Of a stretch of 60,030 nucleotides of DNA, positions 481 to 46,352 are shown piece after piece. The translations under genes were made by a program, and so were the position numbers. Under the pieces are notes generated by a model. It was given only the letters and a program-made list of their open reading frames with translations, had not been told where the DNA came from and made no database searches. Origin of the DNA: Patescibacteria group bacterium (GTDB taxonomy: Bacteria; Patescibacteriota; Minisyncoccia; 2-02-FULL-40-12; IGHO2-01-FULL-4-A); NCBI GenBank assembly GCA_038061865.1, contig JBBTYI010000005.1, forward strand, positions 1 through 60,030, written 5' to 3'. Each line of letters begins with the position of its first letter. The first letter of the stretch is position 1.

Positions 481-753
481 ATGGCACATGCTAAATCCGG
501 CGGGACAACTAAACTCGGGCGGGATTCGGAGTCAAAGCGCTTAGGCGTCAAGCTTTCCTCTGGCCAGCTGGCGATTCCCGGTAACATCATTATCCGTCAG
601 CGCGGCAGCAAATATCTCGCCGGCCAAGGCGTGAAAATGGGTAAAGACGACACAATTTTCGCCATTACCAACGGTATTGTCAAATTCACCACCCGCAAAA
701 AAAAGAACTTCAACGGTTCCCGTCGCCTTGTCAAAACCGTGCATGTGGTGTAG
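481..753 (+). CDS. rpmA: 50S ribosomal protein L27
   Basis: The 90-aa [27 protein letters not shown]...[22 protein letters not shown] matches the canonical L27 N-terminus and core. Confidence 0.95.
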
Positions 754-983
754 CGGAACCTTGCGCAATTTTTTCCACTGCTCCGCATTCACAAATTGCG
801 GTCGCTTCACTAAATTTTCCGACAAAGCTTGCGGTTCCCGTTTCCCCCTCGGCCACCTCGGGATTACCCTCGTGTCCTGACGGGTTTTCCGACCGACTTT
901 GTTATCCGGAAAATTTGAACGCTCCGCTCCCTGATTTGTCCGAAAGCTCCGCAAATTACGAAAATTGCGCAAGGTTCCGCTAC
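750..983. repeat. 234-bp element bounded by 23-bp perfect inverted repeats (750-772 / 961-983); the interior is an imperfect palindrome
   Basis: gtagcggaaccttgcgcaatttt at 750-772 is the exact reverse complement of 961-983. The left arm contains the rpmA TAG stop (751-753). An inner arm pair is attttccg/acaaag vs ctttgt/(tatc)/cggaaaat. There is no credible ORF. Confidence 0.8.
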
Positions 984-1003
984 CTTGACACTTAGTTTTA
1001 TAC

Positions 1004-1040
1004 ACCTCAAGGTCATCTTGAGGTTCAACCTCGGTTTTTT
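1004..1040 (+). terminator. intrinsic terminator (hairpin 1018-1034 plus U6 at 1035-1040) overlapped by a competing 8-bp hairpin (1004-1024)
   Basis: Hairpin 1 is acctcaag/cttgaggt, an 8-bp stem with a 5-nt loop. Hairpin 2 is ttgagg/cctcgg, 6 bp including 2 G-U, directly followed by tttttt. The two share the segment cttgagg, so they are mutually exclusive. Confidence 0.5.
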
Positions 1041-1102
1041 AGTGGGAAGCTAATGTCTTTTTGAGAGTTCTGTCGAAACCTAAGGCCAAGCCGAAGTAGC
1101 GA

Positions 1103-1363
1103 GCTAATCCTCTCCTTAAGAAAACTTAGCGCAGTCTTCCGGGCACCAATTGAGAGCCCAGCACTTTTTTGTATCCAAAAGGGTACTGGGCGTGGAGCGA
1201 ATAGCGGAAAGCCCAGGCCCGCAGGCCGTACTCGCCCGAGTGCAAATGAGGGTCATCTCCGAACTTGAGAGGAGTGAGCCGAGGAATACTGGGAAGGACT
1301 TCCGCGTCAATGAGCGACCCAATTGGTCGGAAGGCAGAGCGGTTTTCGTAGGAGAGGGTTGGC
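1103..1363 (+). ncRNA. candidate structured non-coding RNA of unknown family, closed by a long rod
   Basis: Four consecutive nested helices: 1103-1116/1350-1363 (14 bp), 1120-1126/1341-1347 (7 bp), 1134-1142/1327-1335 (9 bp) and 1146-1152/1320-1326 (7 bp). The G-U pairs are only tolerable on the + strand. There is no convincing ORF. Internal hairpins lie at 1156-1191, 1216-1227 and 1228-1243. Confidence 0.4.
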
Positions 1364-1365
1364 GG

Positions 1366-1809
1366 CTACACCGACGTGACGATGATTTTGAGTTTGGTTT
1401 TTACTTCTGGGTGGAGTTCAATTTCTACTTCATGCTCGCCGACTGATTTGATGTGCTGGGCGAGATTGATTTGATCCGGGCTGATATCAAGATTTTTTTC
1501 TTTGAGAGCGTGGGCAATACTTTTTTCGTTGATAGAACCGTAAAGATGGCCTTGATCATTGGCGTCCTCTTTTATTTCCAGAGTCGCGCCCTCCAGTTGT
1601 TTAACTAACTCCAGTCCCCTCTCTTTCTGATTAGCGTTTTCCATTGCGCGCTGGTTCCGCAAAGTTTCCGCCAGCTTCTCGGCGTTCGCATCCGCCGGCT
1701 TGGCAATTTTTTTCGGAAACAGCATATTCCGGGCGTAACCGTCGGCCACGTTTTTGATGTCCCCGGTCTGGGCCACGCCTTTGATGGATTGGAGAAAAAT
1801 TACTTTCAT
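1366..1809 (-). CDS. rplI: 50S ribosomal protein L9
   Basis: [36 protein letters not shown] is the classic L9 N-terminus. I chose the internal ATG at 1809; the track ORF extends to 1875 with a non-L9 leader. Confidence 0.9.
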
Positions 1810-12079: not shown

Positions 12080-12084
12080 AATAG

Positions 12085-12201
12085 GTAGCTTATTAGTTGA
12101 TTAGCTGCTTAGCTTATTAGGAATAACACGTAAAAAAAATCTCAACAAGTGTTTACAAAACCCTAAAAAGCTAGTAAGCTAGTAAGCTAATCGGCTACTT
12201 T
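12085..12201. repeat. inverted pair of phased octamer arrays: TTAGC-type x5 (12085-12124) and GCTAR-type x4 (12170-12201, ending at the ATG)
   Basis: The first array reads gtagctta|ttagttga|ttagctgc|ttagctta|ttaggaat. The second reads gctagtaa|gctagtaa|gctaatcg|gctacttt|ATG. The two cores are reverse complements of each other. Confidence 0.7.
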
Positions 12202-25114: not shown

Positions 25115-25160
25115 ATTTTTGCGTCATAGAAACCATACTACTAGTTGAAATTTCTAGCCC

Positions 25161-25210
25161 CGATTTTCGCTTGCGAAAATCGAGGATCCGCGATGCCACA
25201 AATGGCATCG
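25161..25210 (-). promoter_or_regulatory. two stable hairpins in the rny 5' leader (25161-25182 and 25191-25210)
   Basis: cgattttcgc tt gcgaaaatcg is a 10-bp palindrome. cgatgcca caaa tggcatcg has an 8-bp stem. Both lie between the predicted promoter and the rny ATG. Confidence 0.5.
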
Positions 25211-25265
25211 GGATTTTTAGTTTCTAGTTTTTAGTTATTTAATTTAACGAATTAGGACCTGATGA

Positions 25266-25294
25266 ATTATAGAAAAAATAACGGTTAGTGTCAA
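25266..25294 (-). promoter_or_regulatory. consensus sigma-70-type promoter for rny (TTGACA-17-TATAAT)
   Basis: The reverse strand reads TTGACA ctaaccgttattttttc TATAAT. Both hexamers are perfect and the spacer is 17 nt. Confidence 0.7.
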
Positions 25295-25323
25295 TTTACC
25301 CGAGATTTTGTTAAAATTAGCTC

Positions 25324-38850: not shown

Positions 38851-39132
38851 ACAGCACCCCCTATTTTGAATTTATTTTTTATTGTTAAGGTGCAAAAATC
38901 GCACCGTTACAGCCAGAAACTATCATTTCTGAATCCTACAAAAAGGGTATCATATAGCAACATAAATGTCAATAGTTGCCCGGTGAATTATCATTCTAAC
39001 CGCAACTAAGTTTGCAGGCTAACTGCAACCCCCAAGTTTTTTTTCGAATTGTTCAATATGCAAAATTCTAACAACTTGCTTTGAGCTCGTGTAGTGACCA
39101 CCCTAAATACGTCCTTCGGCTCACTACGTTCG

Positions 39133-39259
39133 CTCAGGACACTTCTCCTCGCTCAATACAAGAATGGCCTGCACTGAGCGAGCGAAGCGAGTCGAAGTGC
39201 CCTTCGATAAACTCAGGACACTTCTCCAATCTCAGCTTGCACTGAGCTTGTCGAAGTGC
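39133..39259. repeat. two tandem modules, each with three conserved blocks (ctcaggacacttctcc / tgcactgagc / gtcgaagtgc), abutting the tRNA-Gln 3' end
   Basis: Block a lies at 39133-39148 and 39212-39227 (16/16 identical). Block b lies at 39170-39179 and 39238-39247. Block c lies at 39191-39200 and 39250-39259. The spacers differ (21/11 nt vs 10/2 nt). Confidence 0.75.
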
Positions 39260-44528: not shown

Positions 44529-46288
44529 CTAAGCATCAAAAAATAAAAATTTTTGCGGCGGTAATGATTATCATTGCGAGCATACTAGCCATCACCTCCG
44601 CCTGGGATGACTCGGTCATTGTGGATGAAGTGCCGCATATCGGCGCCGGCTATTCATATCTAGTCAAACAGGATATGCGGCTCAACCCAGAGCATCCGCC
44701 GCTGGCCAAAGATCTGGCGGCCATCCCCCTGTTTTTCCTGAATCTCAAACAGGACGCTTTTCAAACTCGTTTTTGGCAGAGTGACCTCAACGGCCAGTGG
44801 GAATTCGGTCGTTCTCTAATGTTCGGCTCGGGCAACGACGCCGACCTGATCAAACACGCCGCTAAACTGCCGATGTTAGTATTTTTTGTTTTGGCGGCGG
44901 TTTTGGTTTTTGTCTGGAGCCGACGGCTTTATGGCGACCTGGGAGCGATTATTGCACTGATTTTATTTTCTTTTTCCACGACCATTATGGCACACGCCCG
45001 GTTTGTGACCACCGATGTGCCGGCGTTGTTCGGCGTTTTACTGGCGACTTATTTTTTTATCAAGTTTTTACACCAGCCAAGCCGGAAAAATATTTTAATC
45101 AGCGGTTTGACTCTGGGTATCGCTTTACTGACCAAATTTTCCACTTTTCTCCTTATCCCCTATTTTATTCTACTGGTGTTTGCATTTTGGTTAATTTACA
45201 AATCCCGACCACCGTCCATCGTCTATCGTTTACTATCGGTTCTGATTATCGCCTTTATCTTTATTATCTGGCCGGTTTATTATTTCCACACCTATAATTA
45301 CCCGCCCGAGCGCCAGCGCCAAGACACCGAAACCCTGCTTAGTTCATTCGGCAACCGGACAGCGGCCGACGCCGTTGTCTGGCTATCAGACAAACCGGTG
45401 ATCCGGGCTCTGGGCCAATACGGGCTTGGCTTGCTGATGGTTACCCAGCGCGCCACTGGCGGCAACACCACCTATTTTCTGGGCGAGGTTTCGGCCAGCG
45501 GCTGGAAAAATTATTTTCCGGTTGTCTATTTTTTGAAAGAACCGCTGGCGTGGTGGGGACTGGTTATCATTGCGCTAGCCGCAACGATGACGAAACTTAA
45601 AAGCTTAAAGTTTAAAGAGTGGCTAAGAAACCACTTTGTTGAATTTGCGATGTTATTATGGCTGGTAATTTATTGGGGCACCAGTATTAAGGGCAACCTT
45701 AATATCGGGGTCAGGCATCTTTTACCGACCTACAGCTTTGCTATCATACTCGTCTCTGGCCAAGTCGCAAAAAGTATTAAGTATTTGGCGTCAAGTATTA
45801 AGCGAAAAGTGCTGCTTAATACTTACTACTTAATACTGGCTACTCTCTTGGGTTGGTACGTCTTTGAGAACCTCTCCGTCTATCCCTACTATCTCACCTA
45901 CTTCAATCAAGCCGGCGGCGGGCCGAGCGGCGGTTATCGCTATGTCGTTGATTCAAATCTGGACTGGGGACAGGACTTGTTGCGCTTGGGCCGATGGGTC
46001 AAAGAAAACAATATCCAAAAAATTGAACTGGATTATTTCGGCTGGGCCGACCCGGCCTATTATCTGGGCGACCGATTCATTTGGCTGACCTCCAGCAAGT
46101 ACAAAGATGCTGCCGATTTCATCGGACGCAATCAATCGGACGGCTGGCTGGCGGTATCGGCAACATTTTTACAGGGCTCGCGGGGCACGCCCGACAAGCC
46201 GGCGCCGATAAATTACGACAACTGGCTTAAAGCCCGCCAGCCCGTCACCGTCATCGGTAATTCAATTTTTGTGTATCAGATAAAGTAG
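44525..46288 (+). CDS. GT-C fold glycosyltransferase (family 39-like, phospholipid-carrier dependent)
   Basis: It is polytopic. The first loop reads DSVIVDEVPHIGAGYSY. There is a 4-nt ATGA overlap with the upstream paralog. Confidence 0.8.
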   Translation: MTKHQKIKIFAAVMIIIASILAITSAWDDSVIVDEVPHIGAGYSYLVKQDMRLNPEHPPLAKDLAAIPLFFLNLKQDAFQTRFWQSDLNGQWEFGRSLMFGSGNDADLIKHAAKLPMLVFFVLAAVLVFVWSRRLYGDLGAIIALILFSFSTTIMAHARFVTTDVPALFGVLLATYFFIKFLHQPSRKNILISGLTLGIALLTKFSTFLLIPYFILLVFAFWLIYKSRPPSIVYRLLSVLIIAFIFIIWPVYYFHTYNYPPERQRQDTETLLSSFGNRTAADAVVWLSDKPVIRALGQYGLGLLMVTQRATGGNTTYFLGEVSASGWKNYFPVVYFLKEPLAWWGLVIIALAATMTKLKSLKFKEWLRNHFVEFAMLLWLVIYWGTSIKGNLNIGVRHLLPTYSFAIILVSGQVAKSIKYLASSIKRKVLLNTYYLILATLLGWYVFENLSVYPYYLTYFNQAGGGPSGGYRYVVDSNLDWGQDLLRLGRWVKENNIQKIELDYFGWADPAYYLGDRFIWLTSSKYKDAADFIGRNQSDGWLAVSATFLQGSRGTPDKPAPINYDNWLKARQPVTVIGNSIFVYQIK

Positions 46289-46352
46289 CCCTCTGCAAAA
46301 GATGAGATACATAAGTAACACTATGTATCTCATCTTTTGCAGAGGGCTACTT
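46283..46352. repeat. 31-bp perfect inverted repeat (46283-46313 / 46322-46352, 8-nt loop) that contains the stop codon of the GT39-like gene
   Basis: aagtagccctctgcaaaagatgagatacata agtaacac tatgtatctcatcttttgcagagggctactt, verified base by base. Confidence 0.85.

Follow-up and report, generated by a model that had tools for sequence, protein, structure and literature searches.

Transcribed intergenic palindromic repeats are known from several groups of bacteria, including the ERIC/IRU sequences of enterobacteria, the Correia/NEMIS elements of Neisseria and the RPE of Rickettsia; ERIC, Correia and RPE are multi-copy sequence families. In a 60,030-nucleotide stretch of DNA (hereafter the window), whose host is a groundwater CPR bacterium close to Candidatus Yanofskybacteria (Paceibacteria), we analyzed two elements, A and B, that resemble ERIC, Correia and RPE in being imperfect palindromes of 100–250 nt placed by gene ends, variably present, and presumably co-transcribed and folded in the mRNA. 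Unlike those families, A and B were each single-copy in the 60-kb window and had no relatives in the collections searched. Element B was confirmed to be real and far more structured than chance. Its occurrence is confined to a single species-level lineage of a Yanofskybacteria-like genome. The description that suits it best is that of a giant hairpin, specific to a strain lineage, within a convergent spacer that is hypervariable, and its interpretation as a conserved or known RNA gene was not supported.

The region lies in a housekeeping neighborhood, with ctpA, cell-envelope glycosyltransferases, mreB and a ribosomal-protein/rpoA cluster, and with priA, def and fmt upstream. An identical region sequence also occurred in the NCBI MAG GCA_964365395.1 (contig CAYIPO010000001.1), and near-identical copies were present in Hainich groundwater assemblies. 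The rpmA and rplI genes converge and are separated, stop to stop, by 612 nt, in a window where most other spacers are shorter than 100 nt, as the initial annotation had observed; the length of this spacer and the presence in it of a second, equally structured element (750–983) had been overlooked there. The features of the region are as follows.

481–753, plus strand: rpmA, ribosomal protein L27 (PF01016).
750–983, unstranded: element A, a 234-nt near-perfect palindrome whose 23-bp perfect arms start in the rpmA stop codon.
1004–1040, plus strand: rpmA intrinsic terminator, overlapping hairpins and then TTTTTT, homologous to the terminator of the relative L061 (19 nt at 89%).
1103–1363, unstranded: element B, 261 nt by sequence reading and folding, extendable to 1096–1369 across the rplI stop codon.
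1096–1100 with 1365–1369, unstranded: outermost (fifth) helix of B, GTAGC with GCTAC, including the rplI stop codon (CTA at 1366–1368 on the plus strand).
1103–1152, unstranded: 5′ rod arm of B (helices 1–4), with five G-U pairs on the plus strand.
1103–1116 with 1350–1363: helix 1, 14 bp, two G-U on the plus strand (this and the next three by sequence and folding).
1120–1126 with 1341–1347: helix 2, 7 bp, one G-U on the plus strand.
1134–1142 with 1327–1335: helix 3, 9 bp, two G-U on the plus strand.
1146–1152 with 1320–1326: helix 4, 7 bp.
1156–1191, unstranded: strong inner hairpin of B, 15 bp with two G-U on the plus strand and one C-A apposition, folding on the other strand too.
1192–1319, unstranded: weakly structured interior of B, with small GC hairpins at 1216–1227 and 1228–1243.
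1320–1363, unstranded: 3′ rod arm of B, ending 2 nt short of the rplI stop codon.
1366–1809, minus strand: rplI, ribosomal protein L9, 147 aa from the ATG at 1809 (PF01281 and PF03948).

The four nested helices of B (37 bp) and its three hairpins had been described in the initial annotation and were all located exactly where it had placed them, as was the duplicated UACUGGG (1184–1190 and 1287–1293). The comparison with dinucleotide shuffles, which that annotation had called for, gave z of about −5.8 on the plus strand (minimum free energy −116.7 kcal/mol; −5.87 and −5.77 in two runs) and between −4.5 and −5.1 on the minus strand (−101.3 kcal/mol; −5.11 and −4.51), and none of 200 shuffles matched the folding energy of B on either strand. 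The minus-strand fold, which is that of the rplI-sense copy, was 15 kcal/mol weaker than the plus-strand one. Pairs closing the ends, counted between the first and the last quarter of B in answer to the other computation requested there, numbered 40, whereas 500 shuffles averaged 8.3, with 26 at the 95th percentile and never more than 37. Because the ends of B were picked on the helix, the score is somewhat inflated. When folded as DNA, 1096–1369 gave a z of −4.2. The interior alone (1153–1319) was weakly structured, with z of −2.35 and −2.47 on the two strands, so that most of the folding signal of B is owed to its 50-nt arms and to the 1156–1191 hairpin. In essence, B is a pair of 50-nt arms, inverted and imperfect, that enclose about 167 nt, plus one strong hairpin; in its minimum free energy structure, a rod leads into a multi-branch loop. 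The earlier argument that G-U pairs favor a plus-strand transcript was correct but weak: the rod has five such pairs and the inner hairpin two, against one A-C apposition, a bias for which a sign test gave p of roughly 0.04–0.07.

Element A gave z of −9.0 and −7.0, with 79 of its 82 pairs Watson-Crick. It is part of the rpmA 3′ UTR, and no convincing promoter for a minus-strand A was found. The terminator at 1004–1040, with its run of six T, sits between A and B, and 1018–1040 was the sole plus-strand terminator site. No terminator-like site was detected at either end of B.

Other structured spacers occurred in the window. A perfect palindrome at 46283–46352 (31-bp arms, 8-nt loop, z about −10) starts at the stop codon, TAG, of the 44525–46288 gene, and its ends, AAG-TA-GCC and GGC-TA-CTT, are like those of A and B. 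The 407-nt spacer 38851–39257, beside tRNA-Gln, had a strong fold on each strand (z −5.0 and −5.3), had no Rfam match at E≤1 and contained short ORFs of at most 60 aa. The spacer 12080–12201 (z −5.4) has 27-nt imperfect arms rich in TAGCT, and 25115–25323 gave z of −3 to −4.

The earlier judgment that there is no credible ORF near B was borne out, no coding signal being found in the spacer ORFs. A Pfam search with five spacer ORFs and a tblastx comparison of the spacer with the relatives gave no match. Two translated pseudo-ORFs of B were also used as baits for miscalled genes; one gave no candidates, and the other gave four low-complexity matches in long repetitive proteins, which were judged spurious.

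No Rfam family reached the gathering score for the region in the window; relaxing the threshold to E≤10 over 700–1450 added just three matches, unrelated and of chance level (E 2–10). ARAGORN reported five tRNAs in the window and nothing else, in particular no tmRNA. The RNase P CR-I look-alike GGAAAGCCCAGGC was present at 1206–1218 as had been described; however, the RNase P covariance models (RF00010/RF00011) had no match at the gathering score or at E≤10, a regex search for CR-IV and CR-V found nothing, and no CR-V-like CGGCUUA or GGCUUA that could complete a P4 pseudoknot occurred on either strand. The tmRNA-like GGUUUCGAC was likewise present on the minus strand, but at 1069–1077, 3 nt off the position first given (1072–1080), and tmRNA was rejected because ARAGORN and Rfam were negative and a UCCACCA 3′ end was missing. 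For 6S RNA there was no Rfam match, the fold of B being a rod that ends in a multi-branch loop, and for SRP RNA there was neither a Domain IV motif nor an Rfam match. A retron ncRNA was rejected too, the neighbors being rpmA, rplI and ctpA with no adjacent reverse transcriptase.

Six contigs of the same species, from different Hainich samples, carried B in the same orientation with at most one substitution, the sole SNP in B being 1268 A>C in a predicted loop. The near-identity of these strains spans the whole of 502–1391 and is not specific to B, and for this reason the strain copies are uninformative on covariation. Between the same strains, 33 of 79 positions differed in the divergent spacer 402–480, between a membrane-protein gene and rpmA, which suggests a recombined promoter patch.

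Closer relatives were found through their L9 and L27 homologues. The order ctpA–rplI, with a converging rpmA and small membrane protein, was conserved in relatives with 59–67% identical L9. In most relatives the rpmA–rplI spacer was 22–65 nt and was mostly a single hairpin filling much or all of it; in some it was 190–1150 nt, and several of these long spacers carried small lineage-specific ORFs. The junction is thus a general insertion hot spot. No relative spacer in those sets resembled A or B. Cys-rich, zinc-ribbon-like ORFs of 84, 83 and 77 aa were seen in L003 (4536–4790), in L005 (2285–2536) and in the L038 spacer, and larger ones of 208 and 181 aa in the L014 and L006 spacers.

In L063, whose L9 is 95% and rplI DNA 93% identical, A was kept at 89% and homology stopped at 981; window positions 982–1365, holding the terminator and B, were replaced by 164 unrelated nt with two other hairpins, and homology resumed exactly at the rplI stop codon. 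In L036 and L037 (L9 91% and 88%) homology was lost at the stop codon, and the contigs ended 44 and 19 nt later, these tails (1535–1578 and 1924–1942) being Logan contig ends. L064 (L27 89%), from the same sample as L036, had a 77-nt spacer (1037–1113) that appears to be one hairpin and whose left arm resembles an arm of A. L061 (L9 84%) was without A and carried the homologous rpmA terminator followed by a different hairpin element of 170–210 nt (z −5.1 and −6.1), and L062 (L9 75%) carried another rod of about 120 nt (z −3.8). Between the same two stop codons, the long hairpin was a different one in each of five close lineages, and the breakpoints, one at the rplI stop codon and the other where A ends, were sharp. 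L036 and L064, two variants of one sample, had 22 nt next to rplI in common and then diverged, which is consistent with strain heterogeneity or assembly breaks at the junction.

In the 89% identical A of L063, the tip was swapped for a different hairpin and a T run followed directly after the stem; outside the swapped tip, three of four stem substitutions kept pairing through G-U on the plus strand. This copy looks like an oversized, 230-nt terminator.

Homologues of B outside the strain copies were not detected in the relatives and collections searched. A covariance model of B (R1) was tried on the relatives both with and without filters and hit nothing but itself and generic hairpins; the covarying homologues expected of a new class of conserved structured ncRNA were not found, only near-identical strain copies. 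Blastn and nhmmer searches with A and B found nothing in 12 relatives from genome contigs, blastn against 19 metagenome-contig loci picked up L023 and L030, both near-identical strain copies, and nothing more, phages and plasmids yielded no match to distant blastn, and four pattern scans of viral contigs gave chance 16-mers only. B and the L061 element have TAATCC(C)TCT...AGAG(G)GGTT and CCAA(AA)TTGAG in common. A hand alignment of their outer helices, which is statistically unsupported, had nine unchanged pairs, one one-sided change, three two-sided changes, one inserted pair and no disruption; the two were not significantly similar by blastn, nhmmer or covariance model, and global/local alignment scored only 2.2 sd above shuffles. 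Homology of B and the L061 element is suggested at most as a lead. The initial annotation had proposed a divergent known RNA or an undescribed one. The structure is indeed real and belongs to no Rfam family, whereas a conserved RNA gene largely fails the test which that annotation had set, namely conservation in syntenic spacers: these spacers were without sequence conservation in the relatives, B was absent from L063, and its covariance model found nothing in the relatives.

We put at about even the chance that B is a young, lineage-restricted foldback, co-transcribed with rplI and acting, if at all, as a 3′-end structure. Because the size and sequence of the junction hairpin turn over quickly, with sharp breakpoints, B is not an old, constrained RNA gene, and the conserved feature of the junction is a hairpin between two stop codons. 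The ancestral rpmA–rplI spacer may have been a single short terminator hairpin that, in several close lineages, was expanded or was replaced by unrelated long hairpins, B probably being an expansion of the rplI 3′ hairpin region. Since B is flanked by the rplI stop codon and the rpmA terminator, and the base of its stem includes that stop codon, rplI transcription must enter B; its minus-strand copy would then fold at the 3′ end of the rplI mRNA. There, a bulky stem could stop or slow the polymerase, block 3′ exonucleases and insulate two converging transcripts of what would be highly expressed genes, and B would not be a trans-acting RNA. B may equally be nearly neutral. This foldback reading is supported by the conserved gene order and the turnover at the junction, by the T run directly after A in L063, by the 77-nt, apparently one-hairpin spacer of L064 and the mostly single-hairpin spacers of the relatives, by the different long hairpins at the same place in L061 and L062, and by the lack of an ORF signal, of a plus-strand promoter-like site ahead of B and of a terminator-like site after it. 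The seven plus-strand G-U pairs and the weaker minus-strand fold, however, count against it. On the minus strand a U tract is missing after B, which leaves no evident sign of classical intrinsic termination, and a 261-nt structure is not needed for termination, because most relatives manage with a hairpin of 22–65 nt.

Alternatively, A and B could be non-autonomous mobile foldbacks of the MITE/ERIC/RPE type, lodged near stop codons in a tolerated spacer and with no function of their own. Their inverted termini (23 bp perfect in A, 12 of 14 pairs Watson-Crick in B), the sharp boundaries and variable presence among close relatives, and the acceptance of small foreign genes by the same spacer in relatives all fit such an origin. 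So do the G-TA-GC...GC-TA-C ends common to A, B and the palindrome at 46283, and the likeness of B to the L061 element in end-proximal motifs but not interiors. Nevertheless, blastn and nhmmer found no second A or B in the 60-kb window, nor did the 20-kb locus L058, which extends 10 kb further upstream, contain a second B. Among the Pfam-annotated genes between 10 kb upstream of the window and about 20 kb inside it, none matched a transposase, recombinase or reverse transcriptase family, a check in which several hypothetical proteins had no match of any kind, and the phage, plasmid and viral collections gave no match. Furthermore, no target-site duplication compatible with the conserved protein ends was found, L27 ending VV* in every relative read; the flanks of B show just the palindromic G-TA...TA-C, and TA is not acceptable as a duplication, because its removal deletes the stop codons, yet the L27 and L9 of relatives end at the same point or within a few residues. 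We consider a mobile origin unlikely.

A broader proposal combines two possibilities. In the first, the rpmA–rplI junction of this Yanofskybacteria-like clade would be a hot spot that swaps unrelated long, stop-codon-anchored hairpins, A and B belonging to an undescribed CPR foldback class that is mobile or made de novo by hairpin-templated copying and is used as oversized 3′-end structures; in the second, B would be a species-specific plus-strand sRNA. Taken as a whole, this proposal appears improbable.

That B is an independent, species-specific structured small RNA of the plus strand is a doubtful reading when taken by itself. The stronger fold of that strand (−116.7 versus −101.3 kcal/mol) and its five rod and two inner-hairpin G-U pairs against one A-C apposition argue for it, as do the interior, which is branched and not a simple palindrome, and the single differing position in B among strains whose flanks have divergent patches; the analogue in L062 also folded better on the plus strand. 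On the other hand, we found no sigma-70-like promoter between the rpmA terminator and B and no terminator after B, which abuts rplI antisense. The interior was barely more structured than shuffles, the near-identity of the strains is not specific to B, and B had no demonstrable homologue and was absent from the relative with 95% identical L9.

To the left of the window, in L058, a span of about 6 kb (roughly 8 to 2 kb away) had positive GC skew, whereas most of the 60 kb had negative skew. The sign thus changes near the window start in the way seen at a replication terminus, which is suggestive. A terminus or dif site at the locus was nevertheless rejected, as no dif-like XerC/D core occurred within 20 kb. 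B as a DNA-level site, whether a segment that can invert or a cassette for recombination at a terminus-like hot spot, would accord with this skew, with the inverted repeats around a segment of 167–233 nt and with the cassette-like replacement of the spacer between relatives. It is nonetheless highly improbable: six of six strain contigs had B in the same orientation, no Pfam recombinase was among the genes checked, and no dif-like core lay within 20 kb. The first two results also speak against an inverton.

A divergent RNase P, tmRNA, 6S or SRP RNA, to which the 13-nt CR-I and 9-nt tmRNA look-alikes and the long stem closing the ends of B had pointed, can be practically dismissed, as Rfam, even at E≤10, and ARAGORN were negative, CR-V, the tmRNA 3′ end and the SRP motif were missing, and an essential RNA would not be absent from the same locus of a 95% relative.

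B serves as a warning that even a very strong fold of a single sequence (z near −6, 40 closing pairs), met with in a compact CPR genome, can prove to be a lineage-specific foldback rather than a conserved RNA. Should turnover of this kind be general among CPR genomes, it would matter for the evolution of terminators and 3′ UTRs, for short-read assembly breaks at such sites and for the false-positive rate of structure-based ncRNA screens.

Compared with known systems, B recalls bacterial RNase P RNA in that GGAAAGCCCAGGC resembles CR-I and its terminal stem resembles P1, but it is too short and is without the CR-V/P4 partner or a covariance-model match. Like 6S RNA, B is long and has its ends closed by an extended stem; unlike 6S RNA, it has no large central bubble or Rfam match and is unconserved even inside a genus-level clade. 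B is similar to MITEs in size and in its inverted termini, the 14-nt arms being 86% complementary and extending to about 50 nt with gaps, whereas it is not AT-rich and is without a target-site duplication, further copies (in the 60-kb window and L058) or a cognate transposase among the checked genes. With respect to intrinsic or bidirectional terminator hairpins between converging genes, B differs in its length of 261–274 nt, its branched interior and the lack of a U tract on either strand, and the actual rpmA terminator is the separate hairpin at 1004–1040; yet B has the same place and basic form as the 22–77 nt hairpins of the relatives, and its stem starts at the stop codon.
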